Virus record (IMG/VR): IMGVR_UViG_3300005239_000666
DNA: 53,471 bases
Origin: an uncultured virus (IMG/VR IMGVR_UViG_3300005239_000666)
Taxonomy: Duplodnaviria > Heunggongvirae > Uroviricota > Caudoviricetes
Reading direction: 5' to 3' (one strand)
Part shown: positions 10,006-38,112 of the stretch, piece by piece
Numbering within the stretch: the first letter of the stretch is position 1
Layout: every line of letters starts with the position of its first letter
Program-made: the position numbers and the translations under genes
Notes under the pieces: model-generated
Told to the model about the DNA's origin: nothing
Seen by the model: only the letters and a program-made list of their open reading frames with translations
Database searches by the model: none

Positions 10006-10457
10006 AGACTTACCAATACGATTTAGAAAAAATTAAAAAAGAGTTAGAGACTTTACCAGATTATAATAAACAATTATATCTACAAGGTTATTCTAAAGAT
10101 ATGGATCCTGAAGAAGGAGCTGGTAAAGGTTACGATATAGATAGTAGCGAACACACATACACTGTTCCTTTATTTGATATACCTTACATTAATAGTATAA
10201 TGGAAGAACATAAACTTACTAGAACAAGATTAATGAGAATGAAACCTAAAGCATGTTATCTTTGGCATAATGACTTAACACAAAGATTGCATATACCAAT
10301 AGTAACAAATGAACATTGTTTCTTATTATTAGATAGTGATAGAATACACATACCAGCCACAGGAGAGGCGTATGTAATAGACACTAGAAAAAAACATACA
10401 GCATTAAATTGTTCAAAAGAAAATCGTATACACATTGTTGGAGGATTACCTTACTAA
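10002..10457 (+). CDS. 2OG-Fe(II) oxygenase, Asp/Asn beta-hydroxylase-like (copy 1)
   Basis: WHND...RLHIP...KHTALN...RIHIV gives the HxD...H triad and terminal Arg. Confidence 0.8.
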   Translation: MKTYQYDLEKIKKELETLPDYNKQLYLQGYSKDMDPEEGAGKGYDIDSSEHTYTVPLFDIPYINSIMEEHKLTRTRLMRMKPKACYLWHNDLTQRLHIPIVTNEHCFLLLDSDRIHIPATGEAYVIDTRKKHTALNCSKENRIHIVGGLPY

Positions 10458-11752
10458 TGGATAATACATTATACGATTGTCTTATAACTTCTTTACCAGG
10501 TATGGATAAAAGTAAACCGGCACCTGGTCCATCTTTTCTAAAAGGTTATTTACAAACAAAAGGATTCAAAATTAAAGTTATTGACGGTCATATGTATGAC
10601 ACTCTAGATAACATTGAAAAAGAAATTAAAAAATATGACTTTAGATGGCTAGGTATATCTGTATTTTCTTATATGCAAAAAGATGATGGCTTAGAATTAG
10701 GTAAAAGATTTGAAAATTCATTTTATGGTGGATCAGGAGTTGATATAGAATGGCCTACAAAGTATTTTATAACAGGAGAAGGAGAGTATGCTCTTGTAGA
10801 ATTTTTAAATGGCAACTTTGATTATCCTGGTATCAACGGAAAACTACCAAGACAAATAGCAGACATAGAAAGTTTACCACCACCGGATTATTCAGACGTA
10901 ATACAACAACATAACTATCGTAAGTTTGTAATATCAGGATCACGAGGTTGTGTTAGAAATTGTACGTTTTGTGATGTTGCTAGTATATGGCCTAAATTTA
11001 GATGGAAGTCAGGTAAAAAAATTGCTGACGAAATGCACCAAGTATCTGAACAAACAGGTACAAAAAAAATACACTTTTCAGATTCATTAATCAATGGTTC
11101 TATGAAACATTTTAGAGACTTATGCCATGAGTTGGCAAATAGACCTAAAAAAATTAAATGGGAGGCACAGTTTATTGTTAGGGCAGAAAAGACTTTTTCT
11201 CAACAAGACTTTGATAATTTACAAAACTCTGGTTGTAATGGATTAGAAATGGGTATAGAAGCAGGTAACGAAGAAGTTAGAGATCATATGAGAAAGAAAT
11301 TTACAAATGAAGATATAAAATACTTTGTTACAAACCTAGGAGAAAGAAATATTACAATGAAGTTTTTACTTATTGTAGGATATCCTACGGAAACGGAAGA
11401 AATGTTTGAAGATACTCTACAACTATTAAGAGACTATGCTCATTATTCACATTTAATTAGTATATCTCACCACGTTATGATGACCTTTAAAAACACACCA
11501 CTAGACTTTGAACATAGAGAGTTGTTTGATAGTGACTTTGGTTTTAAATGGAAAAATGAACACTCTAACTTTGATATAAGATTTCAAAGATTTATAAAAG
11601 TATATGAATTAGGAGTTGAGTTAGGCTATCAGTTTCAAGATCACTGTTTAGAAAAAATAGAGAGATACAAATCCGATAAACTTAATGAAAACAGAAAGTC
11701 TATAGGATTTATTCACCCTAAAAAGAAAAATCAATTACACGTTCAAAGCTAA
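10457..11752 (+). CDS. B12-binding-domain radical SAM enzyme, class B methyltransferase-like (copy 1)
   Basis: N-terminal cobalamin-binding Rossmann motifs (LKGYL..G..IKVID, GISVFS, YGG, GEGE), then SRGCVRNCTFC, GIEAGN and IVGYPTET. Start is the ATG overlapping the TAA at 10457. Confidence 0.9.
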   Translation: MDNTLYDCLITSLPGMDKSKPAPGPSFLKGYLQTKGFKIKVIDGHMYDTLDNIEKEIKKYDFRWLGISVFSYMQKDDGLELGKRFENSFYGGSGVDIEWPTKYFITGEGEYALVEFLNGNFDYPGINGKLPRQIADIESLPPPDYSDVIQQHNYRKFVISGSRGCVRNCTFCDVASIWPKFRWKSGKKIADEMHQVSEQTGTKKIHFSDSLINGSMKHFRDLCHELANRPKKIKWEAQFIVRAEKTFSQQDFDNLQNSGCNGLEMGIEAGNEEVRDHMRKKFTNEDIKYFVTNLGERNITMKFLLIVGYPTETEEMFEDTLQLLRDYAHYSHLISISHHVMMTFKNTPLDFEHRELFDSDFGFKWKNEHSNFDIRFQRFIKVYELGVELGYQFQDHCLEKIERYKSDKLNENRKSIGFIHPKKKNQLHVQS

Positions 11753-11947: not shown

Positions 11948-12348
11948 TTACCAGATTATAAAAACAATATATCTACAAGGTATTCTAAAGACATGGATCC
12001 TGAAGAAGGAGCTGGTAAAGGTATGACGTAGATGAAGTAGAACACACATATACTGTTCCTTTATTTGATATACCTTATATTAATAGTATAATGAAAGAAC
12101 ACAAACTCACTAGAACAAGATTGATGAGAATGAAACCTAAAGCATGTTATCTTTGGCATAATGACTTGACACAAAGATTACATATACCAATAGTAACAAA
12201 TGAACACTGTTTCTTATTACTAGATAATGATAGAATACACATACCAGCCACAGGAGAGGCGTATGTAATAGACACTAGAAAAAAACATACAGCACTAAAT
12301 TGTTCAAAAGAAGATCGTACTCATATTGTTGGAGGACTACCTTATTAA
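11948..12348 (+). CDS. 2OG-Fe(II) oxygenase (copy 2), 5' end at N-gap and indel-damaged
   Basis: Near-identical to 10002..10457. Confidence 0.8.
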
Positions 12349-13649
12349 TGGATAATACATTATATGACGCCGTTATTACATCACTGCCAGGAATGGATAA
12401 GGGTAAACCTGCACCTGGTCCTTCTTTTTTAAAAGGATATTTAGAACCATTAGGATTTAAAATTAAAGTTATAGATGGTAATCAATTAGATACTTTAGAA
12501 AATATACACAAAGAAATTGCAAAATATAAATTTAGATGGTTAGGTATATCTGTATTTTCTTTTATGCAAAAAGAAGATGGTTTAAAATTAGGAGAAAAAT
12601 ATGATAATGCTTTTTACGGAGGATCAGGTGTTGATATAAAATGGCCTTCTAAAAATTTTATAGTAGGAGAAGGAGAATATGCTGTACAAGAATTTTTAAA
12701 AGGAAATTTTGATTATCCTGGTATTAACGGAAGACTACCAAAACAGATAGAAAACATAGAAGATTTGCCACCACCAGATTATTCAGACGTAATAAAAGAA
12801 CACAAATATGGCAGATTTATAATATCTGGTTCTAGAGGTTGTGTTAGAAATTGTACTTTCTGTGATGTTGCAAGTATCTGGCCAAAATTTAGATGGAAAT
12901 CAGGTAAAAAAATTGCTGACGAAATACATAGTGTTGCCGAACATACTAAATCTGAAAAGATAGCATTTTCCGATTCATTGGTTAATGGTTCAATGAAACA
13001 TTTTAGAGATATGGTTTACGAATTATCTATAAAAAAGAAAAAGGTAAAATGGGAAGGACAGTTTATTGTCAGAGCTGAAAAGACTTTTTCGCAAGAAGAT
13101 TTTGATAATTTGGCAAACTCTGGTTGTAATGGTTTGGAAATGGGTATAGAATCAGGTAATGAAAGTGTTAGAAATCATATGAAAAAAAAGTTTACTAATG
13201 ATGATATAAAATACTTTGTTACCAATTTAGGAGAAAGAAAAATTAAAATGAAGTTCTTACTGATTGTAGGATATCCTACAGAAACGGAAGAAATGTTTGA
13301 AGATACTATGCAACTATTAAGAGACTATGCAAAGTATTCACATTTAATCAGTGTATCTCACCACGTTATGATGACTTTTGAAAATACACCTTTAGATTTT
13401 GAACATAGAGAATTGTTTGGTGGAGAATTTGGCTTCAAATGGAAAAATCAAAACTCCGATTTTGATATAAGATTTCAAAGATTTATAAAAGTTTATGAAT
13501 TAGGAAACCAATTAGGTTATCAGTTTCAACAACATTGTATTGACAAAATAGAAAGATACAAATCTGATAAACTTAATGAAAATAGAAAGTCTATAGGAAT
13601 TGATCACCCTAGAAAGAAAAAAGTTAATTCTTTACATGTACAATCTTAA
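12348..13649 (+). CDS. B12-binding-domain radical SAM enzyme (copy 2)
   Basis: Same motifs as 10457..11752 (GEGE, SRGCVRNCTFC, GIESGN). Confidence 0.9.
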   Translation: MDNTLYDAVITSLPGMDKGKPAPGPSFLKGYLEPLGFKIKVIDGNQLDTLENIHKEIAKYKFRWLGISVFSFMQKEDGLKLGEKYDNAFYGGSGVDIKWPSKNFIVGEGEYAVQEFLKGNFDYPGINGRLPKQIENIEDLPPPDYSDVIKEHKYGRFIISGSRGCVRNCTFCDVASIWPKFRWKSGKKIADEIHSVAEHTKSEKIAFSDSLVNGSMKHFRDMVYELSIKKKKVKWEGQFIVRAEKTFSQEDFDNLANSGCNGLEMGIESGNESVRNHMKKKFTNDDIKYFVTNLGERKIKMKFLLIVGYPTETEEMFEDTMQLLRDYAKYSHLISVSHHVMMTFENTPLDFEHRELFGGEFGFKWKNQNSDFDIRFQRFIKVYELGNQLGYQFQQHCIDKIERYKSDKLNENRKSIGIDHPRKKKVNSLHVQS

Positions 13650-15022
13650 AAAGATTTATTAAAACCTAAAGTAAATTTTCTTCCTTCTTGACTAAACCCA
13701 TGAGGTGATTCATAATTTTCATCAAATAGATTTAACAAACTAACACCAAAGTCTATACCATAATAATTATATCCAAGATTTAAATCTAACAAATGTGTTT
13801 CAGGCATTGTTATAGTTGACCAATTAGAATTGTGTACATCTAAATGTTTACCTTTATATTTGTAATTAGTAGTTAAAGAAAATTTATTTTTTAAATCTTT
13901 TGTATTCATAAATCCAACAGACCAANNNNNNNNNNNNNNNNNNNNTTCTATCTCTTTAAAGAAACCTAATTTATATGTTTCGTGTTCTTCATCAAACCTA
14001 TGATGATATGAAAATATATTGTGTGAAAAATTAAAGAAGTATCCTAGATTATGATGTTGACTTGCTAAAGATTCATTATGTTTATAATCAAAGCCAAAAC
14101 CATATTTTTCTTTTTGATGTGTTCCTCTTATTGTATAGTTTTCACTTTCATAATGAGAGTCGTCATAGTCTCTATCATATTCATGTGTATGAAAAGTTAA
14201 ACTATTATTTAAATAATCAACACCTGTTTGTAAGGCAAAGAAAGTATTATCTGCCCATTTACCGTCTTGTATGGAAACACTATGACCATCTATATCAGAG
14301 AAAGTGTTTCTTGCAAACCAAGATGTTCGCCAATGTATTTGATCATACCATTTACTTACGTTAACACCTATTGTTTTATTATTTGTTCCATCTTTTTCGT
14401 CAGCTCCTGATAAAACAGAAACGTTTTGTGACTTATGTTCGCCAGCTGAAAAAGATATATCAAAGTCATTTAATTTAGTATAGTAATTACCACTAATAGT
14501 TTTATCATTACCATTACCACCAATACTTAATTTTTTATCATAATCTACAGTTGTTCTAAAATTAATTGCACCACCAACAGCGTCTGCTCCCCAATGAGCA
14601 CCTTGTGACCCTTTGTATACATCTATTTGTACAACATTAAACATAAAGTCTTGACCAACATCGTGGGCGCCTGTAGGTGTAGAGTAATCATTGATTGATA
14701 TTCCATTTAATAATACTAATGTATGATTAGAATTAGTGCCTCTTAAAAACACCGATGATTGTTGACCTGTAGGACCTGATTGAGTTATGTCTAAACCTTG
14801 AACATAGTTTAATACTTTAGGTAAATCAATTAGATTATACTTTTGAATTTCAGATTTTTTAATTGTAAGTGTAGGTGTTATTTTATCACCTAATGCGTTT
14901 GAGTTGTTTATGTTTGGATATATTGTAAGACAAGGAATATCGTCATCCCATTTACAATCATCTTCCTTGGAATAGGCAACATTAGCCCATACCAAGATTA
15001 ATATAAGAATTAATCTTATCAT
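13646..15022 (-). CDS. btuB: TonB-dependent outer-membrane receptor, BtuB-like cobalamin transporter (internal N-gap 13926..13945)
   Basis: Signal peptide; plug-domain motifs GQQSSVFLRGTNSNHTLVLLNG and KGSQGAHWGADAVGGAIN; C-terminal NLFDENYE...GRKFTLGFNKSF ending in Phe; preceded by a cobalamin riboswitch. Confidence 0.85.
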   Translation of the reverse strand: MIRLILILILVWANVAYSKEDDCKWDDDIPCLTIYPNINNSNALGDKITPTLTIKKSEIQKYNLIDLPKVLNYVQGLDITQSGPTGQQSSVFLRGTNSNHTLVLLNGISINDYSTPTGAHDVGQDFMFNVVQIDVYKGSQGAHWGADAVGGAINFRTTVDYDKKLSIGGNGNDKTISGNYYTKLNDFDISFSAGEHKSQNVSVLSGADEKDGTNNKTIGVNVSKWYDQIHWRTSWFARNTFSDIDGHSVSIQDGKWADNTFFALQTGVDYLNNSLTFHTHEYDRDYDDSHYESENYTIRGTHQKEKYGFGFDYKHNESLASQHHNLGYFFNFSHNIFSYHHRFDEEHETYKLGFFKEIEXXXXXXXWSVGFMNTKDLKNKFSLTTNYKYKGKHLDVHNSNWSTITMPETHLLDLNLGYNYYGIDFGVSLLNLFDENYESPHGFSQEGRKFTLGFNKSF

Positions 15023-15025: not shown

Positions 15026-15127
15026 GAGTCTCCTTGCTCGTTGTATGGCCTAGGTGGCATTCGGAGTATAACCGTATCAAGTAATCTGGACGAATTTCAC
15101 GTCACTTTCCCACTACACTTTTAGGCC
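15026..15127 (-). ncRNA. class-II cobalamin riboswitch (AdoCbl-variant family, env8HyCbl-like)
   Basis: Minus strand reads GGCCTAAAAGTGTAGTGGGAAAGTGACGTGAAATTCGTCCAGATTACTTGATACGGTTATACTCCGAATGCCACCTAGGCCATACAACGAGCAAGGAGACTC. It has a GGCCTA/TAGGCC closing stem, GGGAA and GCCAC core motifs, and the SD AGGAG inside the terminal GAG/CTC hairpin loop, 7 nt before the btuB ATG. Confidence 0.95.
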
Positions 15128-15144: not shown

Positions 15145-15173
15145 AGTATATAATATTTTATCTAAAATGGCAA
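15145..15173 (-). promoter_or_regulatory. sigma70-type (early) promoter for riboswitch-btuB
   Basis: TTGCCA-17 nt-TATACT on the minus strand, just upstream of the riboswitch. Confidence 0.75.
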
Positions 15174-15182: not shown

Positions 15183-15190
15183 TATAAATA
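15183..15190 (+). promoter_or_regulatory. T4 late promoter
   Basis: TATAAATA, 5 nt before the ATG at 15196. Confidence 0.75.
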
Positions 15191-15195: not shown

Positions 15196-15537
15196 ATGGC
15201 TGGAATAGCAAACTTAACGATAGACCAAGGGTCCAATTTTACATACGATTTAGAAGTCACTAATACCGATGGTACAAATTTTGATCTTACTGGATTTACG
15301 ATGGTTGCTAAAATGTCTGGAGGTTATTCTTCTACATATCCTAGAACAGTATTTACTTGTACAGTAACAAATCCAACAGAGGGTGTGGTAACTATAAGTT
15401 TAACTGCCGATCAAACAAAAGCTTTAAAGGCAGGCCGTCACGTATTTGACGTTGTAGCTACTCACGCTGATAGTACTGTTACTCGTTTATTAGAGGGTAT
15501 TGTTATCGTAACTCCATCTGTAGTTAGAGCTTTTTAA
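15196..15537 (+). CDS. putative virion structural protein (beta-rich, Ig-like)
   Basis: ANLTIDQG..F...DLTG...G.VTISLT...T..LKAGR.V.DV...RLLEG pattern common in marine T4-like phages; late promoter. Confidence 0.6.
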   Translation: MAGIANLTIDQGSNFTYDLEVTNTDGTNFDLTGFTMVAKMSGGYSSTYPRTVFTCTVTNPTEGVVTISLTADQTKALKAGRHVFDVVATHADSTVTRLLEGIVIVTPSVVRAF

Positions 15538-16922
15538 GATTTATTCCATTCAAACGTTGCTTTGTTATCGCCTTTTTCTGCTAATTGAAATTTATTTTTA
15601 GTCATAAATTGCATTAAAGCATCCCAATTTAAACCAGATATATCATCAAAAACCCACATTGTTTGATCTGCTTTTCTTTCATTAAAGAAAGCGGCTTCTT
15701 TTAATACACTAACTGTATCGTGAGGACCATCAAAGTGTATCATTTCATATTTGTCTATCATTCTTTTATACTCATCATAGACAGGATAACCATTAGCAAA
15801 ACTATTCATAAATTCTGAATCTTCTAGGTTTACAAGATGAAACTCTGGATAATCTTCAGCAAAATTTATTAATGTAGTTTTTCTCATTAAATTATCGTAG
15901 TTAAATTTTCTGGCTAATACACTGTCTGAAGCTGCATAGTCAATATTGCCATATGGATCAACACCTAAATGAACACAAGAAGTGGTAGGATGATAATGTC
16001 TATATGCGTCTATAATAGTTTTACTTCCTAACCCTAGTCTAACGCCTATTTCCATACTTTGACCAATAGGGTTTTTTAACATTTTTACGGCCGTAGCTAA
16101 ACTTCCATACTCTATACTATCACCAGTAAATTTTTCTCCTTCATTTACTTCTAGTGAATATTTTCCAGTTTCAGGATCAATACCTGGATAAACTCTACTA
16201 ACATCTTTTGCAGTCTTGTCAATAAATCTAGTATCTTTAATACCTTTGCCTTCAACCTCTGTTACGAATGTCTTTGTATCGGCTACAACTGGTTTTTCTT
16301 CTTCAAACATATTACGATTGTTCATAATTTGTCCTACTTCAAATGTACTATTGCCTGTGTGTTTACAACGTATCGTAGTATCTGCCCATATTTTAAAACC
16401 TTTTGCTCTTGCTTTTCTACAAAAGTCAACATCTTCGGATAATGTATTGTTATGATCAAGTGCTGAATGATATGTGTATTGAGGATAACCAACTTCTCTA
16501 AATACTTTTCCTTTAATAAGGGCACAACCCATACCACAACCAACTATTTCTAAAAACGGAGTATCTTTAACTTTTACAAAAGGAATACGTCTAGAGCCAC
16601 CATTATTACTTGCCTCATAAATTTCTAATGAGTGTGTTCCTGGTATTCTTTGAATATAAAGACCTGATACAATATCTACATCATGTGCTAACATTTTAAC
16701 TAACGTATCTTTATCAAAAGATATATCACTGTCTACAGAAAACAAATAATCATAATGTTCTCCCCATTTAGCAATTAGATTTCTAATTTGATCTACTTGA
16801 TAACCAAAAAAGAATTGAAATTCAACTTTGTATCCTTCTGGTACTGTAAGATCATATATTGCTTTGTATGTTTCTGGTTCTATATACTTGTTTGTTGGTA
16901 TTGCTATTAATATTTTTTTCAT
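15534..16922 (-). CDS. GT2-like glycosyltransferase fused to a class I SAM methyltransferase
   Basis: N-terminal RN..., LFSVDSD (DxD), GMGCALI and SEDVDFC; C-terminal MEIGVRLGLG, HFDGPH and FDD. Confidence 0.8.
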   Translation of the reverse strand: MKKILIAIPTNKYIEPETYKAIYDLTVPEGYKVEFQFFFGYQVDQIRNLIAKWGEHYDYLFSVDSDISFDKDTLVKMLAHDVDIVSGLYIQRIPGTHSLEIYEASNNGGSRRIPFVKVKDTPFLEIVGCGMGCALIKGKVFREVGYPQYTYHSALDHNNTLSEDVDFCRKARAKGFKIWADTTIRCKHTGNSTFEVGQIMNNRNMFEEEKPVVADTKTFVTEVEGKGIKDTRFIDKTAKDVSRVYPGIDPETGKYSLEVNEGEKFTGDSIEYGSLATAVKMLKNPIGQSMEIGVRLGLGSKTIIDAYRHYHPTTSCVHLGVDPYGNIDYAASDSVLARKFNYDNLMRKTTLINFAEDYPEFHLVNLEDSEFMNSFANGYPVYDEYKRMIDKYEMIHFDGPHDTVSVLKEAAFFNERKADQTMWVFDDISGLNWDALMQFMTKNKFQLAEKGDNKATFEWNKS

Positions 16923-18949
16923 TGGTTAATTATCCTATTCGCATTTTTTGTTTGTTCGTCTCCGTTAATTTTATAATCGTTTAAAGGATTTATATCATTA
17001 TAATTATATAGTATATCTGATACAACTTTTACCTTGTCTGGATCGGCTTGTTCTATAAGTGAGTAAAATATAGAACCGTCTCCACCGGCTTTGTACCAGT
17101 TTTTGTTTTCATCTTGGAAGTTACTGTCATCAATATTATTTAAAAGTCCTGCTTTAAATGTTCTCAAATGTGTGTATGGCATATTCCAATTAAATTTGTA
17201 TTTTCTATATTCTTTCTTTTGTTTTATTTCCTCTGGATAGTTTTGTGCTATCAAAGGTATTCTATCAACCATTGAGTAACAAGACCCATAGGTAAATTCT
17301 GTAGTGCCGTCATAAAGATTATTGTAAAAGTGAAGTATCTCATTATCATTTATAAAAGAATCATCACCGTCTAAAAACATAACAATGTCATCTTCTTTAC
17401 AATATTTTCTTATAGACTCTATTTGATTTCTAACAGCGCCTTTGTTTTCTTCATTACGAATCACTTTTATTTTATCACTTTCCCACTGTTTGGCAATGTT
17501 GTAAGTGTTATCTGTAGAAGCGTCATCAATTACAATCATTTCATAGTTATCATAATCTTGTGAGACAACTGATTCAATACAGTTGTTAATATATCTTTCA
17601 GAGTTGTAAGTAGGAGATATTATAACTATCTTTTGTTCTACTTTTCTTGGTAAATAATTTTCTTCTATATTAGTAAATCTTCTACCAAAAACTTTTCTAA
17701 CTCTAGAATTTATATGACATACTTTTCTGTATTCTTCTTTTGATAAGTAAATTCCTAAATTTCTATATAGATGTTGTTTCCATTGTAAGGCTACAGAGTC
17801 CCAGCCAACAACACCTTTAATTTGATTACAAGCATATTGTTTTTGTTGGTGTAAATATCTATTATGATGAGCCATTATTACAGTGTTGACAAATTTTTCT
17901 ACTTGTTTTTCTTTTGGTATCCATGGAAATAAACCATTAGGTTCTATTGCATAATCTATTAAGTAGCAAGCTTCATTTACTGCTGTTTCTTCTAAAGCAC
18001 CAAAACGTGTGGTGATTAAAGGAGTGTTATATGCTATTGCTTCTAAAGATGATATACCAAATGTTTCAGGAAAAGCACCTGGAAATAATTTGTAACTTGC
18101 TCTTTCTAATATATCTGCTATTTCAGATTGTTTTATAACACCTGTAAATTCTATACCTAAATTTTTATTTTTAGGATCATTTGACATTTTAGTCCATTCT
18201 TTTCCTTGAGCGTCTAGCTCTTGTCCTGGGAAAACATAAAAACCACCAATACATATTAGTTTAGCTTCAGGTATTTTTGCTTTTATTTTTGGCCATATAT
18301 CGTTAACTAAAGGCGCCATACCTTTTGTGAAAGCTGCATTAAAAACATATAAGTGAGGATCTTTTTTTCTTATGTCAACATCATTTTTATAAGTTACTAT
18401 TCCATTTCTAGTTTGAAAGAATTTATGTTTTAATACTTCCATATTTCTTCTTTTACCATGGTCACAATTCATTACGTAAGTTGAATGAAAATCTGATAAA
18501 GTAAATACTTCATCTATATGTCCTTGTACTAAAAGGTCTTCTAATATAAGATCGCCGTTTGCAAACGTGTCGTGCATCCAAACTGCTTTATGTTTAGCAT
18601 TAGCTGTGATTGCTGAATATCTTTGAGGATTATATCCTTCAAACTGTTTGTATAAGTTAGGCGTTATAAAAGGAATTATAGTTCTTAATGAAATTACAAT
18701 ATCAAATTTAAAATCACTTTTATAATCTAAAATGGTATTGTCAAAGTATTGTACACCATCATAAGTGCCTTCTCTTGCGAGTTTTGAGTCTTTATTACAG
18801 TTGTTGAAAATAGTTACTTTGAAACCTAATTTTGTTAGTTCTTTGGCCATCAAGATAGTCGCAGACTCGCTACCACCAAGGCCTCTTTTCTTTAATGTAT
18901 CTCCGTCATACGGAAGACCAATTATATCTAAAAATGCAATAGAAATCAT
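16919..18949 (-). CDS. bifunctional glycosyltransferase (GT4/GT-B + GT2)
   Basis: GLGGSES and ETFGISSLEA (GT4); IISPTYN, IDDASTD and FLDGDD (GT2). Confidence 0.88.
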   Translation of the reverse strand: MISIAFLDIIGLPYDGDTLKKRGLGGSESATILMAKELTKLGFKVTIFNNCNKDSKLAREGTYDGVQYFDNTILDYKSDFKFDIVISLRTIIPFITPNLYKQFEGYNPQRYSAITANAKHKAVWMHDTFANGDLILEDLLVQGHIDEVFTLSDFHSTYVMNCDHGKRRNMEVLKHKFFQTRNGIVTYKNDVDIRKKDPHLYVFNAAFTKGMAPLVNDIWPKIKAKIPEAKLICIGGFYVFPGQELDAQGKEWTKMSNDPKNKNLGIEFTGVIKQSEIADILERASYKLFPGAFPETFGISSLEAIAYNTPLITTRFGALEETAVNEACYLIDYAIEPNGLFPWIPKEKQVEKFVNTVIMAHHNRYLHQQKQYACNQIKGVVGWDSVALQWKQHLYRNLGIYLSKEEYRKVCHINSRVRKVFGRRFTNIEENYLPRKVEQKIVIISPTYNSERYINNCIESVVSQDYDNYEMIVIDDASTDNTYNIAKQWESDKIKVIRNEENKGAVRNQIESIRKYCKEDDIVMFLDGDDSFINDNEILHFYNNLYDGTTEFTYGSCYSMVDRIPLIAQNYPEEIKQKKEYRKYKFNWNMPYTHLRTFKAGLLNNIDDSNFQDENKNWYKAGGDGSIFYSLIEQADPDKVKVVSDILYNYNDINPLNDYKINGDEQTKNANRIINQ

Positions 18950-19057: not shown

Positions 19058-21223
19058 ATGCCAGTAATTAAGAACGCCGGTGTTCGTGTCGGCCTAGGAC
19101 GTATAGGTTATACAGGATCGGGAGGTCCAACAGGTTTTACAGGTTCCAAAGGGGCTGATGGAGCCGCTGGGTCACCAGGTGGTTATTCAGGTTCACAAGG
19201 TTTCACAGGATCAGTTGGTGCTCAAGGGCCAGGTGGTGGTTACACTGGTTCGGTAGGTGCTGTAGGATTTACAGGATCCTCAGGAGGTTTAGGGTACACA
19301 GGTTCATCTGGTACAGTTGGTTTCACTGGTTCAACAGGAGTAGGTTACACAGGATCAGCAGGCTCTGATGGTTCAGACGGCTCTGTAGGTTTTACTGGTT
19401 CTACTGGAGCAGGATATTCAGGATCAAAAGGTGATCAAGGTACAATAGGTTATTCAGGTTCAAAAGGCGACACAGGTTCAGCTGGCGCCATAGGTTATTC
19501 AGGTTCAAAAGGTGATCAAGGTACACAAGGTACAATTGGTTTTTCAGGATCACGAGGTTTACAAGGTACATCGGGTTATGCAGGATCAAAAGGAGATTCA
19601 GGAACAGCAGGTTCCGATGGTTCAGATGGTTCAGTTGGTTTTACAGGATCAGTTGGTGCAGGTTACACTGGATCAAGAGGTGCTACAGGTGCTCAAGGGC
19701 CAGGTGGTGGTTATACTGGTTCAGCAGGTGGTTTAGGATATTCAGGTTCAAAAGGCGATCAAGGTACAATAGGTTATTCAGGATCAAAAGGTGCTGATGG
19801 TTCAGCCGGCACAGTAGGATTTTCAGGTTCAAAAGGCGATCAAGGTACAATAGGTTATTCAGGATCAAAAGGCGCCGATGGTTCAGATGGTTCAGATGGT
19901 GGCGTAGGTTATTCAGGATCAAAAGGAGATACAGGAACAGGTTTCACTGGTTCAGTTGGTACTGTTGGTTTCACTGGTTCAGCAGGATCAGGTTCAGATT
20001 CTCCATTTGTATTTACAACTTCAGGAGATTATAGAACACTTACAGGATATTTAGAAGGTGGTTCAACAAAAACAGTTAGAACGGCAGAGTTTTCATCTGA
20101 CTTATTAAGATTAACTTTAGCAACATTTACTCCTTCATTTTCAGCTTCAGGTAGTCCTGCAAGTTATAATAATTGGGACATACCAGCAACAGGATTTTCT
20201 GTATCTGTAGACAACCCTAGTGACATTACAAACGATTTTATAAGTTCAGTTTACTCTATCACTCAATCAAGTGGAAGTGTTAACGGTACTTTAAGTAATT
20301 ATTCAGCAGGTAGTTATTCACAAACACCAGCAGGAGGTACAGATTGGAATCAATCTTTTACTACTGATCAATCAAACTCATATATTAGACCAATATCAAC
20401 TAGTCGTACTGGAGGTTCGGCTGGTGGTACAGTTAGATTTAATAGAAACAACGGAAGTGAATCAGAATATACAGATTCAAATACAAGTTTTTCTGTAAAT
20501 TGGGCATCAGCGTCTATGAGTTTATCTAAAAATAATGTTAGCGGAAAAACATTTTTAAAATCTTATGCTAGTACATCGTACTCTACTAACACAAGTGGTA
20601 TATCAAATTCAGGAAACACTTCACATGCTTTAACAGCAAGTGGTGGTTCTTTGAGTACAAGTTCAGGAAGCGGCTATGTGAGTGGGACATTTACTTTTAC
20701 ATCACCTATACACAAAGATAATACAAGCGATACACGTACAGTATCTAATACTACTACGTTCACAAGACCTGTTGATGTAACAGGCACCTCATATACGACA
20801 GATCAGTCGTCAACAACAAGCAACGTATCTGCCTCATTTACATACCCGTCTTTCTGGATCTGGACAACAGGAGTAGGAACACCTCCAGCAGTTGCTGATA
20901 TAATAGATGATTCAACATCTACAGGTTTTGAATCGGCAGTTAATCAGTTAGCAGATCAAACAAGAACATTTTCAGTACAATCAGTTAATAATTCAGATTC
21001 AAATCCTAGAGCATTTTGGTTTGCTGTTAAAAATTCAGCGTCTCAACCTGGTACATTTAAAACAGGTGCAAGTGCAGGATTATTAAGTGATGTTAGTACA
21101 ACAGATGGTGGAACAATTACACTAGTACCTGATTCACCATTGTCAGGACAAACAGGAGAAAGTTATCATTTATATGGATTTACTTTACAACCAGGAACAA
21201 CTTACGTGGAGATAGGAGCATAG
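19058..21223 (+). CDS. collagen-like (Gly-X-Y) virion fibre protein with Ser/Thr-rich C-terminal domain
   Basis: About 300 aa of interrupted G[FY][TS]GSxG repeats, followed by a beta-rich S/T region. Confidence 0.8.
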   Translation: MPVIKNAGVRVGLGRIGYTGSGGPTGFTGSKGADGAAGSPGGYSGSQGFTGSVGAQGPGGGYTGSVGAVGFTGSSGGLGYTGSSGTVGFTGSTGVGYTGSAGSDGSDGSVGFTGSTGAGYSGSKGDQGTIGYSGSKGDTGSAGAIGYSGSKGDQGTQGTIGFSGSRGLQGTSGYAGSKGDSGTAGSDGSDGSVGFTGSVGAGYTGSRGATGAQGPGGGYTGSAGGLGYSGSKGDQGTIGYSGSKGADGSAGTVGFSGSKGDQGTIGYSGSKGADGSDGSDGGVGYSGSKGDTGTGFTGSVGTVGFTGSAGSGSDSPFVFTTSGDYRTLTGYLEGGSTKTVRTAEFSSDLLRLTLATFTPSFSASGSPASYNNWDIPATGFSVSVDNPSDITNDFISSVYSITQSSGSVNGTLSNYSAGSYSQTPAGGTDWNQSFTTDQSNSYIRPISTSRTGGSAGGTVRFNRNNGSESEYTDSNTSFSVNWASASMSLSKNNVSGKTFLKSYASTSYSTNTSGISNSGNTSHALTASGGSLSTSSGSGYVSGTFTFTSPIHKDNTSDTRTVSNTTTFTRPVDVTGTSYTTDQSSTTSNVSASFTYPSFWIWTTGVGTPPAVADIIDDSTSTGFESAVNQLADQTRTFSVQSVNNSDSNPRAFWFAVKNSASQPGTFKTGASAGLLSDVSTTDGGTITLVPDSPLSGQTGESYHLYGFTLQPGTTYVEIGA

Positions 21224-21224
21224 T

Positions 21225-22535
21225 ATGGCAAATTACGATGGTCTAACACGAAACGTCTGGCCAGGAACATGGAGTACCGGAACTAACTCGCCTATCGTTT
21301 TAGATACGGAAGTTAGAGGTACACTTCAAAGTATTTCTGGTGATAGTGGAGATAGATTAACAGATATTCCTGGTGCAAGAATAACGGAGGGTATGTTAGT
21401 ATATGTTAAAACAGGATATACTTCCGGTTCTTACACATACACAACAGACAAATATTACACTTATAAACTTCAAGGCAGTGAAGTACGTAGCAATGTTACA
21501 GGTGCTATGCCAAATGCTGACGCCAACTGGACATTATTCAGTGTTGGTGGTGGAGCAGGTTACACAGGATCAGCAGGCGCTATAGGATTTACAGGATCAG
21601 CAGGCGCTATAGGTTATTCAGGATCAAAAGGAGATTTAGGATACTCAGGATCAAAAGGCGATCAAGGTACAATAGGTTATTCAGGATCAAAAGGTGATCA
21701 AGGTACTTTAGGATATTCAGGATCAAAAGGCGATCAAGGTACATCGGGTTATTCAGGTTCAAAAGGAGATTTAGGATATTCAGGATCAAAAGGTGATCAA
21801 GGTGTAATTGGTTACTCAGGATCAAAAGGTGATCAAGGTACACAAGGTGTAATTGGTTATTCAGGTTCAAAAGGAGATTTAGGATATTCAGGATCAAAAG
21901 GTGATCAAGGTATAATTGGTTATACAGGTTCAGAGGGAAATTTAGATGTAGCAGTTGCTTCAACTCCTCCAGGTTCAGCAGGTATTGGTGACGTTTGGAT
22001 TGATGACGCAACAGGTATTCAATACTTCTACATGAACGATGGTAACAGTAATCAATGGGTAGAATTAAGTAACCAAGGTGTTGTAGGATTTACAGGTTCA
22101 TCTGGTGCTAGCACACTATCTGGTCTTACAGACGTAACTATTAGTACACCACAAAAAGGCCATACTTTAGTTTATGATGGTTCAGGTTGGGTACAAACAC
22201 AAACTCCAATTTCACAATTTGTTGTAACAGCCAATGGTTCAAGTGCATACAGATTTGATGGTGCAGGATTCCCTAGTACAAGTGGCGATAATCCTACTAT
22301 CTACCTTAAAAAAGGTCAAACATATTACTTTAGAAATACAACTAGTGGACACCCATTTAGAATACAGTCTACTGCCGGTACAGGTGGAACAGTATATAAT
22401 ACAGGCGTTACTGATAATAACGCTTCAGGATCAACAGGTGTAGTTATATTTCATGTTCCTATGAGTGCTCCTGCGACATTATACTATCAATGTTCATCGC
22501 ATGGTTCTATGGTAGGAACAATTACTATAGTTTAA
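21225..22535 (+). CDS. collagen-like virion fibre protein
   Basis: GYSGSKGDQ repeats; GDVWID...QWVE module; C-terminal NPTIYL..G..Y.F...HPF...LYYQC..H..M module (cupredoxin-like, seen in marine phage fibres). Confidence 0.8.
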   Translation: MANYDGLTRNVWPGTWSTGTNSPIVLDTEVRGTLQSISGDSGDRLTDIPGARITEGMLVYVKTGYTSGSYTYTTDKYYTYKLQGSEVRSNVTGAMPNADANWTLFSVGGGAGYTGSAGAIGFTGSAGAIGYSGSKGDLGYSGSKGDQGTIGYSGSKGDQGTLGYSGSKGDQGTSGYSGSKGDLGYSGSKGDQGVIGYSGSKGDQGTQGVIGYSGSKGDLGYSGSKGDQGIIGYTGSEGNLDVAVASTPPGSAGIGDVWIDDATGIQYFYMNDGNSNQWVELSNQGVVGFTGSSGASTLSGLTDVTISTPQKGHTLVYDGSGWVQTQTPISQFVVTANGSSAYRFDGAGFPSTSGDNPTIYLKKGQTYYFRNTTSGHPFRIQSTAGTGGTVYNTGVTDNNASGSTGVVIFHVPMSAPATLYYQCSSHGSMVGTITIV

Positions 22536-22579
22536 TTTAAAACTATTGTATTATTAAAGAATTTGAAGAAGATTTATAT

Positions 22580-22587
22580 TATAAATA
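22580..22587 (+). promoter_or_regulatory. T4 late promoter
   Basis: TATAAATA in the intergenic region. Confidence 0.7.
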
Positions 22588-22695
22588 GATGTAGAAAAGA
22601 AACGAAACACTTTTCTTGCAAGAATATAATTTTTTACTATGACAGATATTGAGGTTTTAAAATTTTAAAAAAACAATAATTAGGAGACAAACAAA

Positions 22696-23709
22696 ATGGC
22701 AATAAACTTTCCATCGTCCCCCTCATTAAACGATCTATACACACTTGGCACACGTCAGTGGAAATGGAACGGCAATGGGTGGGCACTACAACCTCTTACA
22801 GCAGGTTTCACTGGATCAATCGGTTATACTGGTTCTAAAGGTGATATCGGGTACACAGGTTCTAAAGGGGATACAGGTCTAGGTTTTAACATAGCTAAAA
22901 CTTATACAAGTGTCGCTAACTTATCAGCGGATACAAGTCCAACAGGCATTAATACTGGTGAATTTGCTATCATTGAAAACGGCTCTTTAACAGACGCCGA
23001 AAATTCTAGATTATACCTATGGAACGGTTCAGCATACTCATTCGTATCTGACCTTTCAGGTACAATTGGTTTCACAGGATCTAAAGGTTTTACAGGATCT
23101 AAAGGGGATCAAGGTATTATCGGTTTCACAGGATCTAAAGGGGATCAAGGTGTTATAGGTTACACTGGTTCTAAAGGTTTCACAGGATCAAAAGGTGACA
23201 TTGGTTACACAGGATCAAAAGGTGATCAAGGTGATATCGGTTACACAGGATCTAAAGGTTTCACAGGATCACAAGGTGAGATTGGTTTTACTGGATCAAA
23301 AGGTTTCACAGGATCAAAAGGTGACATTGGTTACACTGGATCTAAAGGGGACATTGGTTACACAGGATCAAAAGGTGACATTGGTTACACAGGATCAAAA
23401 GGTGACATTGGTTACACTGGATCTGAAGGTAATCTTGATATCACAACTTCAGCTACTCCGCCATCATCTGGCGTAGGCGAAGGTGATATTTGGGTAGACA
23501 ATGCAACTGGTGTACAATACTTTTACTACAACGATGGTAACAGCACACAATGGGTAGAGCTTTCTAACCAAGGTGTTGTTGGATTTACAGGATCAAAAGG
23601 TGATCAAGTAGACACTGTTGATTCAAGTAACTTCAGCTCAGCTGTAACTTTACTAATCAAAAATAGTTCAGGTACTACATTAAAAACAATCATAGGTAAC
23701 GCTTCATAG
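22696..23709 (+). CDS. collagen-like virion fibre protein
   Basis: AGGAG SD; INFP..P....Y....WKWNG..W N-terminal module; GYTGSKGDI tandem repeats. Confidence 0.8.
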   Translation: MAINFPSSPSLNDLYTLGTRQWKWNGNGWALQPLTAGFTGSIGYTGSKGDIGYTGSKGDTGLGFNIAKTYTSVANLSADTSPTGINTGEFAIIENGSLTDAENSRLYLWNGSAYSFVSDLSGTIGFTGSKGFTGSKGDQGIIGFTGSKGDQGVIGYTGSKGFTGSKGDIGYTGSKGDQGDIGYTGSKGFTGSQGEIGFTGSKGFTGSKGDIGYTGSKGDIGYTGSKGDIGYTGSKGDIGYTGSEGNLDITTSATPPSSGVGEGDIWVDNATGVQYFYYNDGNSTQWVELSNQGVVGFTGSKGDQVDTVDSSNFSSAVTLLIKNSSGTTLKTIIGNAS

Positions 23710-23742
23710 TAAGCAGAGCAAATTAAAAGGAGAAAATAAATT

Positions 23743-24672
23743 ATGGCAACAAGAAACCCATTAGTATACAGCAGTGGAAATCTAGTTGAAATGACTTCAG
23801 CTCAAGTTGACGCAGTTATAGATAATATTGTTTATCAATATTCTTTATCGCCGTCAGTTACGTTATCAGTAGTAGGTTCAGGTGGCTCTTTAGGAGCAAT
23901 TTCTGATACAAGAAAACAAGCAGGTGCTATTTCTAATAGTTCTTCTAGTTTTCCAGGATCAGGTACAACACAAGACCCTCAAACTGTAACAACAAACTAT
24001 GACAAAGTAAGTCAGTCAGTAGCTTCGGTTACGCCGACAGCTGACACAGGTACAACATGGCCGGTATACTACACAAGTGGTGGTGAAGTTCATGCTATGC
24101 CTTTAGCAGATATTAAGGACACGTTCTTACATCCTGCTATTGATTTACTTACAGCGAGTACAACTACAACGCAACAAGGTGGTACATATTTTATATCATC
24201 TTCAGCGTCTGTTAGTGGTGCTACTGAAGTTAGTGGTTCAAACACACCTATATTCATTGACACAAGAGCCAACACTGGCGCTTATGCTGCTGGATCTATA
24301 GGTGACCACGCACAAGATAACCCAACTACGATTACTAGTTACTATTTACAGAGAGTAAATGGTGCTACGTCATCTTACGAAAATCTATTAAATATAGACG
24401 GTACAACTCACTTACAACAAACTGGTTCATCTTTTGATACTTTGTGTCAAGAGTGGATTAGAGCGACTGCAAGTGCTTCAGTAGACGGATATACGATTAG
24501 ATACAACTTTAATGGTTCAGGTACTACAAGAGGTTCAGGTATGGCGAATACTATACTTGATGGCTCTAGTTACAATACTAGACAAGTTGGCGATGACTAT
24601 AGAGCGCAAGAGTTTCCAGCAGGTTCGGTAACGACAGCTGCAACTCACACGCTAAAGATTGTTAAAGCATAA
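23743..24672 (+). CDS. putative virion structural protein (S/T/G-rich)
   Basis: AGGAG SD, long ORF, followed by a terminator. Confidence 0.6.
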   Translation: MATRNPLVYSSGNLVEMTSAQVDAVIDNIVYQYSLSPSVTLSVVGSGGSLGAISDTRKQAGAISNSSSSFPGSGTTQDPQTVTTNYDKVSQSVASVTPTADTGTTWPVYYTSGGEVHAMPLADIKDTFLHPAIDLLTASTTTTQQGGTYFISSSASVSGATEVSGSNTPIFIDTRANTGAYAAGSIGDHAQDNPTTITSYYLQRVNGATSSYENLLNIDGTTHLQQTGSSFDTLCQEWIRATASASVDGYTIRYNFNGSGTTRGSGMANTILDGSSYNTRQVGDDYRAQEFPAGSVTTAATHTLKIVKA

Positions 24673-24701
24673 TAATCTATAGTAATCAAAGGTGTAAAAT
24701 T

Positions 24702-24735
24702 AACCCCCGGAGCCTAGGTTTCGGGGGTTTTTTAT
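24702..24735 (+). terminator. Rho-independent terminator
   Basis: AACCCCCGGA...TTCGGGGGTT stem followed by a T-run. Confidence 0.85.
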
Positions 24736-24760
24736 TGGAAAATAGCTTCTTTAAACTCGT

Positions 24761-24777
24761 TATAAATATTATAAATA
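24761..24777 (+). promoter_or_regulatory. tandem T4 late promoters
   Basis: TATAAATA at 24761..24768 and 24770..24777. Confidence 0.7.
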
Positions 24778-24811
24778 TGGTGATAGAACAAATAGAAGGA
24801 ACAAAATTTAA

Positions 24812-25992
24812 ATGCCAACAATAAACTTTCCGACAGGTCCGTCTCTAAACGATACATATAATTTAGGTGTACGTACATGGAAATGGAATGGGGAAGCATG
24901 GGCTTTACAACCACTTACAGGTGGATTTACAGGATCACAAGGTTATACAGGTTCAGCAGGCGCTGGCGGTTCATCTGGTGCGATTGGTTATACAGGTTCA
25001 ACAGGTGTCGTTTTGCCTTTAACTATAGATACAACAAACGATAGAGTAGGTATCGGAACAACATCTCCTGCAACTTCACTTCATATTGCAGCTCAAATTC
25101 CAAAAATTAGAATAGAAGATACAGATTTATCAGGAATGGCATTTGATATTAGAGGAGCTGGACCTAGTGCTGTATTTGATTTAGATCCAGATTCTTCTCA
25201 AGCGCTTGCTGATTTTGCGTTTGATATTGGCGGCAGTGAAAAAATGAGACTTCGTGGCACTGGTAGATTAGGAATAGGAACTACAACTCCATCAACAACG
25301 TTAGATGTAGTCGGTGATATCAAATCTAGTGGCAAGATATTTACAGGCGATACAGAATTACAGAGTGGAGCAAGAACTACTATTAGTGCAGGCGCTTCAA
25401 ATCTTGAAATTACTGGTACTACCAATGGTATGAAACTATATGTTAAAAATGGAGGCGTTGAAGGATTTGCTGCTGGATCGGAAGGTGGTGTAGGACACGG
25501 TGCAATTGCTTTAAGAGGCCAAACAATACTTGTGGGTGGTAATAGTAGTAAGGGTTTCGCATTTGGTAGAAATGTTAGTTGGTCCGATGTTGATTCAATA
25601 GGTCAAGACGATATAGTAATTAAAGGTGACACTGTAAATATTAATGGTGCATTAACAGTAGGTGGTGTAGCAATAACTCCTGCGACAGTACCAACAATAA
25701 GTTCAATAAGTCCTGCGACTATTGAAACAAGTACAGCAACAGCAGTTACAATTACAGGAACAAATTTCGCTTCTATACACAAGTAGAGCATAATTCTACT
25801 ACAGGTATTTGGTATACTGCCGACTNNNNNNNNNNNNNNNNNNNNNNNNNNNNNNNNNNAGGTGGTAGTTCAACTACACCAACAACATATAATTTTACCG
25901 TAAGAATAACGGATGCCGAATCGCAAACAGTAGATAGATCGTTTTCTATTACAACATCTTACGGTGCAACAGGAGGAGCTCAGTTTAACTAA
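24812..25992 (+). CDS. tail-fibre-like protein with C-terminal Ig-like domains (indels and N-gap 25826..25859)
   Basis: Same N-terminal module as 22696; RVGIGTTSP and RLGIGTTTP fibre repeats; PTISSISP...ITGTNF (IPT/TIG-like). After the gap, TYNFTVRITD...DRSFSI ends at a TAA overlapping the ATG at 25992. Confidence 0.65.
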
Positions 25993-29499: not shown

Positions 29500-30305
29500 A
29501 TGGTAGTAATGAATCCATATTTTCAGCACGGAGACGGCATCGGAAATGCTTCAGAGAAACACCTGTATGAAGATTTAATTATAGAAGGATTAAAAATATA
29601 CGGAAACTTAATCTACTATATGCCAAGAGAAATGGTAAATAGAGATTTAGTTTTAGGTGAAGATGTTAATAGTAAATTTAAAAATGCTTTACCTATTGAA
29701 ATGTATTTTGAAACTACTGAAGGATTTGCAGGTCAACAAGAGTTAATTAATAAATTCGGATTAGAAATAAGAGAAGATACAACACTAGTTGTTTCTAAAA
29801 GAAGATTCCATAATAAAGTAGATACTAGAGTTGCATTAAAAGTACCAGGCAGACCTAACGAAGGAGATATATTATTCTTTCCTTTGATGAATAGTTTCTT
29901 TGAAATTCAATTTGTAGAAGATCAGGAACCTTTCTTTCAATTAGGTAACTTACCTGTTTACAAATTAAGAGTTACACGTTGGGAATATTCAAACGAAGAA
30001 ATAGATGTCGGAATAAAAGACATTGATAAAAGAGAAAGAGAAAATTCAGTTAATCTATTAGTAGACAGAGTACGTTTAGAAAACGAAGCAGGCAGCGTTA
30101 AACTAGAACAGATAACATATCATATGGTAATGCTAACTTCTTATTAAACGAAGAATATGACGCAACAAAAACTACTGTACAAACTCAATCTGATTACGCA
30201 CAAAATTTAGATTTAGATACGGCAGCCGGTTTTGATACAGCGTCTGTAACAGATGACGTATTAGACTTTACTGAAAGAAATCCATTTGGGGAGGTAGACA
30301 TTTAA
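29500..30305 (+). CDS. gp14: neck protein gp14 (single-base frameshift near 30110)
   Basis: NPYF, YYMPRE, KFGLEIR and RPNEGD. The shifted frame ends DFTERNPFGEVDI* at 30305. Confidence 0.88.
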
Positions 30306-30484
30306 TGGAAAGAGATAGACATAGACAATTGCGTGAACACGCTAACAAAGTTCAAAGAGAAAAAAAAGAAATAGAACTATCAAGAGTTTTAAAAAAAGAA
30401 GTAGTTTCTGGTGCTAATGGCACACAAGATTATATAATTAAAGAAGGACCTAATAAAGGTAAAATAGCAGATAAAGGACAATAA
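30305..30484 (+). CDS. small hypothetical protein (59 aa)
   Basis: Not in the ORF track. MERDRHRQLREH...IADKGQ*; TAATG overlaps with gp14 and gp15 at both ends. Confidence 0.7.
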   Translation: MERDRHRQLREHANKVQREKKEIELSRVLKKEVVSGANGTQDYIIKEGPNKGKIADKGQ

Positions 30485-31425: not shown

Positions 31426-31427
31426 TT

Positions 31428-31892: not shown

Positions 31893-31895
31893 AAA

Positions 31896-33527: not shown

Positions 33528-33543
33528 TCTATTTCTAGGTTAT

Positions 33544-33551
33544 TATAAATA
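33544..33551 (+). promoter_or_regulatory. T4 late promoter
   Basis: TATAAATA upstream of gp18. Confidence 0.75.
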
Positions 33552-33643
33552 TCAGTACTGGCTTTAAATATGGATGTAAGAAAACTTACAAAGACGTGAA
33601 TTATAATATATTAATAATTAGCTAATTAAGAGGAGAATAACCT

Positions 33644-35569: not shown

Positions 35570-35590
35570 TTAGTAGAGGAGAAATAAAAA

Positions 35591-36118: not shown

Positions 36119-36127
36119 TACAAAATT

Positions 36128-38108: not shown

Positions 38109-38112
38109 TTAG

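Follow-up and report, generated by a model that had tools for sequence, protein, structure and literature searches.

The env8HyCbl RNA, a class-II cobalamin riboswitch described simply as "environmental" in the literature found, is reportedly the subject of a 2012 study by Johnson et al., which Polaski et al. cited in 2016. It corresponds to GenBank AACY021350931.1 and is a member of family RF01689 (the Cbl-II class), and it has been studied by crystal structure, single-molecule fluorescence resonance energy transfer (smFRET) and reporter genetics (Polaski et al., 2016, PMC5028336, and work cited there). In the portions of that paper used here, the RNA prefers hydroxocobalamin (HyCbl) and methylcobalamin (MeCbl), which carry small beta-axial ligands, over adenosylcobalamin (AdoCbl), and it lowers expression of an Escherichia coli reporter about 8.5-fold by means of a kissing loop between L5 and L13 that hides the ribosome-binding site (RBS). 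The cobalamin-responsive leader of E. coli btuB likewise controls translation of an outer-membrane cobalamin receptor through an L5-L13 kissing loop, although it is a different, AdoCbl-binding riboswitch (portions of PMC10653944 and PMC5028336). As to the source of the motif, its taxa were given as "Marine" (Weinberg et al., 2010), and papers on auxiliary genes of pelagiphages mention cobS and cobT, not btuB or a switch. A close phage-encoded case is that of the glutamine riboswitches in the ssrA region of the pelagimyophage-like Melnitz and Mosig; in the paper that reports them, the one cobalamin riboswitch mentioned belongs to the OM43 host and precedes the host's own btuB (Buchholz et al., 2022, PMC9004378). 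In the literature found, mainly open full texts and partly excerpts, the phage origin and gene context of env8 or RF01689 are not stated, and a prior mention is possible. Here, we describe an element at 15026..15127 on the minus strand of a 53,471-nt stretch of DNA from an uncultured virus of the Caudoviricetes (IMG/VR record IMGVR_UViG_3300005239_000666), which is called the window below. With a probability that we put at roughly 0.85, this element is the U11 allele of the env8HyCbl riboswitch, native to marine T4-like myophages that are relatives of Pelagibacter phage Mosig, and acts in the way proposed below.

The element spans 102 nt and is the full equivalent of env8HyCbl, composed of the aptamer, a 7-nt J1/13 linker and the P13/L13 hairpin. 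The RNA runs from nt 1 (G) at 15127 to nt 102 (C) at 15026, and the ATG of a btuB-like receptor gene follows at 15022-15020, 4 nt beyond its end. An earlier reading of the DNA, made without database searches (the sequence-only reading), had thus placed the element correctly, directly 5' of that gene. It had also suggested a covariance-model search, and RF01689 (AdoCbl-II, formerly AdoCbl-variant) indeed matches the aptamer over its whole model (1-81/81, at 15127..15047, minus strand) with 75.2 bits compared to a gathering score of 36.5 (E 5e-17); apart from it, Rfam matches only a tRNA in the window, at 47820-47891. In the numbering of PMC5028336, as far as its printed parts give it, the L5 loop (nt 44-51, UUACUUGA, 15077..15084) is the 5' partner of the kissing loop, and the regulatory hairpin P13/L13 (nt 89-102, 15026..15039), with a predicted 3-bp stem and the loop CAAGGAGA, is the other. 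The Shine-Dalgarno (SD) sequence AAGGAG lies within L13 at 15030-15035. By computation, CUUG of L5 is complementary to CAAG of L13 with A97 and G98 in between, which matches the description of env8, and both loop sequences are those between which the sequence-only reading had expected pairing, namely an SD-bearing hairpin loop and an upstream loop ACTTG. Its description of the element as GC-richer is right in direction and modest in size: the GC content is 0.47 for the aptamer and 0.38-0.39 for the 100-nt bins across the element, compared to 0.21-0.42 for the adjacent bins. The minimum free energy (MFE) of the fold is -21.9 kcal/mol (z = 0.10 against shuffled sequences), with P1 and the P13 hairpin recovered. 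Since MFE is uninformative for an RNA held by tertiary structure, the case is built on the covariance score and on the identity to env8 and related sequences.

A comparison by eye with oligonucleotide sequences from the PMC5028336 supplement shows the window RNA to be identical to env8HyCbl at 101 of 102 positions. The reference was put together from the printed smFRET 5' half (nt 1-47, with U24 labelled), the 3' half (nt 48-102) and a 36-nt DNA splint (nt 31-66). In the printed parts of that source, P13/L13 comprises nt 89-102, L13 contains the RBS, A97 and G98 are bulged or unpaired and U45 pairs with A99; this numbering fits the window RNA exactly, and the pair called "A48-G96" is A46-G96 by count of the printed oligonucleotides. 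The two RNAs therefore share L5, J1/13, P13/L13, the A97/G98 bulge and the SD within L13. The sole mismatch is at nt 11 in the J1/3 strand (window 15117), where env8 has C and the window has U, and the match apart from about one base that the sequence-only reading had stated is borne out.

The exact env8 102-mer is itself present on five other distinct environmental contigs (L004, the same as L090; L007, the same as L104; L167; L174; and L176), and 16 sequence variants of the riboswitch occur among related environmental loci. Because the segment nt 10-13 varies naturally (GCGU, GUGU, AUAU, GUAU and GCAU), U11 is an ordinary allele. The variants differ in the loops, in J1/3 and, by compensatory change, in P1, where GGCC/GGCC becomes CUGCC/GGCAG or GUGC/GCAC; the natural alleles comprise U11, G98A, four L4 variants and the P1 swaps. 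In an alignment of nine sequences from three lineages, the four core pairs of the kissing loop are kept in 36 of 36 cells, while slid controls reach at most 61%. Two of the four pairs show compensatory change, with CCUG:CAGG in SAR11, CCAG:CUGG in the phage contigs L105 and L122, and CUUG:CAAG in the env8 type. Coming from three lineages only, this covariation is suggestive and falls short of statistical proof. A separate feature was seen at the loci L096-L098, L158 and L170, where about 75 nt lie between the -10 box and P1 of the riboswitch, including a GC-rich insert with the inverted repeat GTCTACAC...GTGTAGAC; the riboswitch after this insert has the compensatory P1 change CUGCC/GGCAG.

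Then, does the riboswitch belong to a phage? The window carries T4-type genes for neck, gp15, TerS/TerL, sheath, tube, portal, prohead protease, scaffold, gp23, UvsY, UvsW and gp46/47-like proteins, of which those from neck to gp23 form a core at 29500..42075 on the plus strand (Portal_T4 4.5e-183; Gp23 1.3e-148). Its gp23 is 86.2% identical to that of Pelagibacter phage Mosig EXVC030M, 73.9% to that of the OM43 phage Melnitz and 71.1% to that of HTVC008M. The riboswitch stands in a block without N at 13946-25825, which also holds a small LtfC-like or tail-fibre-assembly-like gene divergent from the riboswitch (15196..15537, plus strand; phrog_1084, 2e-25; phrog_3304, L-shaped tail fibre assembly, 1.1e-17), two glycosyltransferase or methyltransferase-domain genes (15534..18949, minus strand; PF00535, 6.7e-27; PF00534; phrog_2170) and collagen-repeat tail-fibre genes (19058..25786, plus strand; phrog_5073 and phrog_6320, tail fibre; phrog_677, baseplate wedge tail fibre connector, 6.2e-44). 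The nearest N runs are at 13926-13945 and 25826-25859, so that the ungapped stretch from the riboswitch through the fibre genes to 25825, which the sequence-only reading had reported, is real.

Linkage to phage genes is also found beyond the window. An exact 42-nt core of the riboswitch is present at nine IMG/VR loci, all nine with an RF01689 match, and eight of them share the order fibres, two glycosyltransferases, LtfC, then riboswitch and btuB-like gene, then a radical S-adenosylmethionine (radical SAM) gene. In the ninth (L006), the cassette lies between primase/NrdA and a tail assembly chaperone with an Rz-like spanin. A degenerate core retrieved 20 metagenome loci, 18 with the flanking genes of the main arrangement, as far as the contig extends, and two of the L006 type. 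Consequently, when contigs with close homologues are classed as viral or cellular, as the sequence-only reading had suggested, phage genes flank the core at 9/9 IMG/VR and 20/20 metagenome loci; these 29 loci are not 29 independent assemblies, since some of the metagenome contigs are the IMG/VR records themselves (18487, 20806 and 11549 nt). That reading had further wished for confirmation of linkage to gp23, and this is given by an independent assembled contig in IMG/VR (G487, 52.6 kb, without N), which has an env8-type copy and a gp23 98% identical to that of the window. On this contig, 26.6 kb with no N run from gp23, portal, sheath, TerL, neck, fibres, glycosyltransferases and LtfC to the riboswitch and btuB, colinear with the window gene for gene. 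The phage flanks and the linkage on G487 support the suggestion that the riboswitch is native to a T4-like phage.

The gene under the riboswitch encodes a putative BtuB-like TonB-dependent receptor with a signal peptide, a plug and a predicted beta-barrel (13646..15022, minus strand). Intact relatives are 535-537 aa long; in the window the receptor reads as 458 aa because the N run at 13926-13945, 20 N in length, replaces 251 nt of the L005 sequence, and the identity to L005 falls from 99.7% to 94.3% across it. The plug matches PF07715 (E about 1.2e-17, profile 9-107/107), and other features are a conserved Cys-x-Trp...Asp-Asp-Ile-Pro-Cys motif and a predicted barrel with a C-terminal Phe (...KSF). 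In a comparison of the family profile with the PDB, E. coli BtuB is best (2.5e-32) and Cir is next (2e-16). The AlphaFold2 model is poor (predicted local distance difference test, pLDDT, 56.7) and lends weak support, with 10 E. coli BtuB entries among the first 11 Foldseek rows, FepA at rank 12 and, at this low confidence, about 22-25 predicted strand elements. The closest solved protein is thus E. coli BtuB (PDB 1NQE and others), whose mature form exceeds the phage protein by about 60 residues; the two are 17-19% identical in the fold alignment, and no TonB box is recognisable in the phage protein. Of the name "btuB-like" used in the sequence-only reading, the "like" must be stressed; since the NCBIfam cut-offs for BtuB are missed, the protein is named BtuB-like rather than BtuB.

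A profile scan found this viral receptor clade at 68 distinct IMG/VR loci with 49-100% identity, including one on a 165,693-bp record rated complete by CheckV, where gp23 is also present. Of these loci, 25 have the compact env8 form of the switch, two have a long form and 41 have none. Among the relatives, L115-L118 carry at about 2559-2910 (plus strand) a permuted tmRNA of alphaproteobacterial type (RF01849, 125 bits; RF04321, 118 bits) immediately ahead of a btuB-like gene of 59% identity, where it occupies the place of the riboswitch in other relatives. Another record, G486 (the IMG/VR record of L148, 137,583 nt, CheckV 29%), has a 55%-identical btuB-like gene followed by a radical SAM homologue and no gp23 match, and could represent either cellular DNA or another, larger virus. 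The nearest virus record compared, G001, is without RF01689; as a 44-kb fragment, 24% complete, it allows no inference.

Convergent on the btuB-like gene lies a radical SAM gene (12300..13649, plus strand), to which PF04055, NCBIfam families, homologues and an AlphaFold2 model all bear. PF04055 matches with E 1.2e-19 and 5e-18 in two scans, and the cysteines of the CxxxCxxC motif (C165, C169 and C172) show no variation across 35 sequences. The best NCBIfam matches, all below cut-offs, are B12-type radical SAM families (the PhpK family and others), and in a search of 1.8 billion proteins the B12-binding domain PF02310 (E <= 0.001) was present in 31 of 35 aligned homologues. The model (pLDDT 92.9) has MgmA, OxsB, TsrM, AprD4, CysS and TokK as its top PDB matches, ahead of MiaB/RimO, and aligns to MgmA, OxsB, TsrM, CysS and TokK with E 3e-16 to 3e-13 and template modelling scores of 0.63-0.67. 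The protein has the CxxxCxxC motif of these class B enzymes, and its homologues carry PF02310; it is 14-19% identical to them, and AprD4, of the same fold, also ranks high. The neighbour is probably a cobalamin-type (class B) radical SAM enzyme, for which cobalamin binding is predicted. Where the downstream flank of an IMG/VR locus extends to 1.5 kb or more, a homologue is present within 14 of 16 loci with the riboswitch, compared to 16 of 36 without it. The surrounding genes are of glycan type, including a DegT aminotransferase, glycosyltransferases and further radical SAM genes. A second copy of the radical SAM gene (10409..11752, plus strand) lies in an 84.8%-identical repeat across the N run 11928-11947 and is probably a scaffold or strain-variant artefact, because related contigs are single-copy.

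What, then, are the cellular relatives of this system? The RNA-level search of cells covered 401 Pelagibacterales genomes, and the GTDB protein scan comprised at least 600 stretches. BLAST of the 102-mer against those genomes gave nothing longer than a 20-nt match, with no env8-type copy in any of the 401; the 20-nt exact match, in 19 of them, lies inside a ppk-like open reading frame (ORF) and is unrelated. In the GTDB scan, with one genome per species, the best full-length receptor relatives among the matches listed are at least 21 Pelagibacteraceae loci with 30-33% identity. Proteins from metagenomes, of the canonical 604-618 aa, come up to 41-44% identity. Among the GTDB matches is a 67% partial one, on a 2.9-kb contig (L012) binned in a "Flavobacterium sp." metagenome-assembled genome (MAG), which has a divergent env8-type switch with compensatory P1, flanked by a radical SAM gene and a gene of unassigned family.

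In SAR11, RF01689 occurs in 33 of 151 sampled Pelagibacteraceae genomes and stands directly upstream of a btuB homologue with plug and barrel at 6 of 7 loci. The locus consists of a 619-620-aa receptor gene and then a DUF6580 gene, among sugar-nucleotide genes. The phage and SAR11 systems thus have in common RF01689 before a receptor gene, the kissing-loop core with its covariation and a sugar-nucleotide gene setting. They differ in the expression platform: the SAR11 switch has about 90-130 nt after P1, with the kissing-loop partner CAGG well upstream of the start codon, whereas in the env8 type the linker is 7 nt long and L13 itself contains the SD. The phage contigs L105 and L122, whose receptors are 85% and 82% identical to the query, keep the long SAR11-like form. 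Since SAR11 cells carry the longer RF01689 before their own btuB, the compact env8 form looks like a phage-streamlined derivative. As for the DUF6580 gene, it directly follows the SAR11 btuB homologue in L022 (4873-5373, E 6e-29) and L015 (4884-5396, 2e-27), and its product may be an inner-membrane partner of the SAR11 receptor; DUF6580 was unmatched among 60 window ORFs scanned.

A sigma-70-type promoter candidate, TTGCCA-17 nt-TATACT, with 10 of 12 consensus matches, lies at 15145..15173 on the minus strand, some 17 nt ahead of the first nucleotide of the riboswitch. The region shows no enrichment of sigma-70-like sites over shuffled sequences (14 found, 11.9 expected), and the call is based instead on the conservation of this site at the corresponding position in related loci, both those that have the riboswitch and those that lack it. 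On the plus strand, the motif TATAAATA of T4 late-promoter type is read directly at 15183..15190, 5 nt before the divergent LtfC-like gene, and is kept in related loci, as TATTTATA on the displayed strand; a T4-like late-promoter motif is cited in the methods of PMC9004378. Judged from sequence, both motifs would function as promoters. In each of four metatranscriptome runs, from four studies, part of the btuB-like gene is covered by contigs, which in three runs extend as far as the riboswitch (X16, 14837-15538; X17, 14885-15112; X15 ends at 15088). These contigs give no start, strand or level, one spans both divergent genes and DNA carry-over is possible, so that they allow no verdict on transcription. 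In many loci without the switch (L107-L114, L128-L131, L140-L142 and L147, with a TTGACT-17-TATTAT site), the ATG comes about 5 nt after the -10 box, which suggests that these btuB-like mRNAs are leaderless.

As an assembly, the window is a scaffold interrupted by six N runs (1273-92, 4335-54, 11928-47, 13926-45, 25826-59 and 28257-76). Near-duplicate blocks face each other across N runs, 10053-11802 and 11948-13700 with 84.8% identity and 1-699 and 4851-5549 with 91%; they are probably strain variants joined in assembly, related contigs being single-copy. Some features away from the riboswitch were noted in passing. The UvsW-type helicase is found in two overlapping plus-strand ORFs, 45306-46016 with the N-terminal and DEAD part and 45881-46807 with the helicase C part, a split that may be genuine or may stem from a frameshift or from a sequencing error. 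DUF7483 / phrog_19943 is likewise spread over two plus-strand ORFs, 27293-27652 (profile 1-103) and 27758-28318 (profile 152-317), the second of which contains the N run 28257-28276. An ORF with a match to the Druantia DruA domain (PF14236, E 6e-13) at 52403-53470 on the plus strand runs off the end of the window and is adjoined by a peptide deformylase gene at 51622-52362.

Based on these observations, the following mechanism can be proposed. From the sigma-70-like promoter of host type, the host RNA polymerase would transcribe, probably early in infection, a short leader that is nearly all riboswitch. With HyCbl or MeCbl bound, L5 and L13 would kiss, the 3-bp P13 would be stabilised with the SD buried, and translation of the BtuB-like receptor of about 535 aa would be turned off; the ligand preference and the translational repression are taken from the literature on env8HyCbl and not from the window allele. 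Under cobalamin shortage in the infected cell, the outer-membrane receptor would be made and would presumably transport cobalamin. The likely purpose would be to supply cobalamin to the phage class B radical SAM enzyme within its glycan-modification cluster.

It should be noted that several observations weigh against this reading. As to provenance, the window is, as described, a gapped scaffold with strain-variant duplications, and the phage origin of env8's own source read (AACY021350931.1) follows by inference from sequence identity. In the cultured-phage collection, megablast of window 13000-16000 gave no match, and tblastn of the receptor gave six enterobacterial or Acinetobacter records, all with matches to the plug only (22-25% coverage). 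The cassette is therefore absent from the cultured phage records searched, and the host is one that we infer to be SAR11 because of the gp23 similarity and the shared design of switch and receptor. Closer cellular relatives of the receptor, or a cellular carrier of the riboswitch outside Pelagibacterales, may exist, and the flanks of L012 are neither clearly viral nor clearly cellular. As to function, the receptor scores below the NCBIfam BtuB cut-offs (TIGR01779, 95.5 against 599.7 bits; NF007926, 88.3 against 836), PF00593 is undetected in it, so that the plug alone reaches Pfam significance, and no TonB box is recognised, the profile alignment to BtuB beginning at BtuB residue 22. In four btuB-bearing SAR11 genomes, which are incomplete, TonB_C was found in none, with a model that finds only 3 of 14 controls, while ExbD matches occur in three of these four incomplete genomes. 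TolR is a paralogue that might be confused with ExbD in such matches. The N-terminal PF02310 match of the window's radical SAM protein is weak (E 0.005, 17.1 bits compared to a cut-off of 32.1). Finally, as 41 of 68 loci are switch-less, cobalamin regulation is dispensable in many relatives.

Could the switch work while the BtuB-like protein is no importer? The protein might instead remodel or mask the host surface, by superinfection exclusion, as a receptor decoy or by receptor replacement, and the switch would then read the state of the host. BtuB is a classical receptor for phages and colicins, and the gene lies beside tail-fibre and surface-glycan genes. The receptor is about 80 aa shorter than the SAR11 or E. 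coli BtuB and misses the equivalog cut-offs, the Cys-x-Trp...Asp-Asp-Ile-Pro-Cys motif takes the place of the expected TonB-box region, and both the failure to find TonB_C in the four SAR11 genomes and the 41 switch-less relatives count in the same direction. However, a cobalamin sensor that is retained, streamlined and kept up by compensatory changes implies that the cobalamin level matters to the use of the gene, a class B radical SAM neighbour accompanies 14 of the 16 switch-bearing loci with enough flank, and BtuB is by far the nearest solved relative. We consider such a role for the protein unlikely.

It is far less probable that the cassette is really cellular, from SAR11 or another marine bacterium, and owes its phage context to chimeric assembly, mis-scaffolding or misclassification in IMG/VR. 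The N runs and duplicated strain-variant blocks of the window, the SAR11 loci with RF01689 before btuB and the binning of L012 in a bacterial MAG could be cited for it. This explanation is, however, already largely refuted: many contigs that were assembled separately, from IMG/VR, JGI, ENA and Tara (some of them duplicate records), show the same junctions, G487 runs without N over 26.6 kb from gp23 to btuB, and the cassette is present in two different phage architectures. Moreover, the SAR11 copies are of the longer switch type with a receptor only 30-33% identical, and env8-type sequence is absent from all 401 Pelagibacterales genomes. The least credible alternative, that the riboswitch came in as an inert passenger with a captured host gene and has ceased to regulate anything in the phage, can draw on the loci that dispense with the switch and on an MFE fold no better than shuffles, but is dismissed since the 102 nt stay nearly constant between contigs that differ by 10-30% in their flanking proteins, P1 and the kissing loop change in a compensatory manner, the env8 sequence represses its reporter with HyCbl in the published work cited above, and an RNA with the SD inside L13 cannot be neutral for translation.

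With the reading of a phage-native env8HyCbl thus preferred, the RNA is already known, and its provenance and biology are new relative to the literature found. One of the best-studied riboswitches, env8HyCbl is now given a phage, a receptor gene and a radical SAM neighbour as its context, so that 14 years of mechanistic work can be brought to bear on its natural alleles. A cobalamin switch thereby joins the short list of phage-encoded riboswitches. The glutamine riboswitches of Melnitz and Mosig are likewise carried by phages of streamlined marine heterotrophs, and in the same phage group (gp23 86% identical to Mosig and 74% to Melnitz), whereas their ligand and target, glutamine and the ssrA region, are different. 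The natural series from the long SAR11-type switch through the compact env8 form to no switch, with a leaderless-looking start, could be used for studies of how expression platforms are streamlined.

More tentatively, and with somewhat less than even odds in our estimate, the T4-like phages of SAR11 may run a B12 economy of their own, in which a phage-made mini-BtuB, placed early in the host envelope and throttled by a streamlined switch, would bring in cobalamin for phage-encoded, cobalamin-dependent radical SAM enzymes that build or modify glycans. If this is true, the compact env8 architecture that drew structural biologists to this RNA, with its 7-nt linker and the SD inside L13, would be the product of phage streamlining from a SAR11-type switch, and the long-form phage contigs (L105 and L122) and the switch-less relatives would be surviving intermediates. 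The finding suggests that abundant ocean viruses take part in the acquisition of B12, a limiting micronutrient in the sea.

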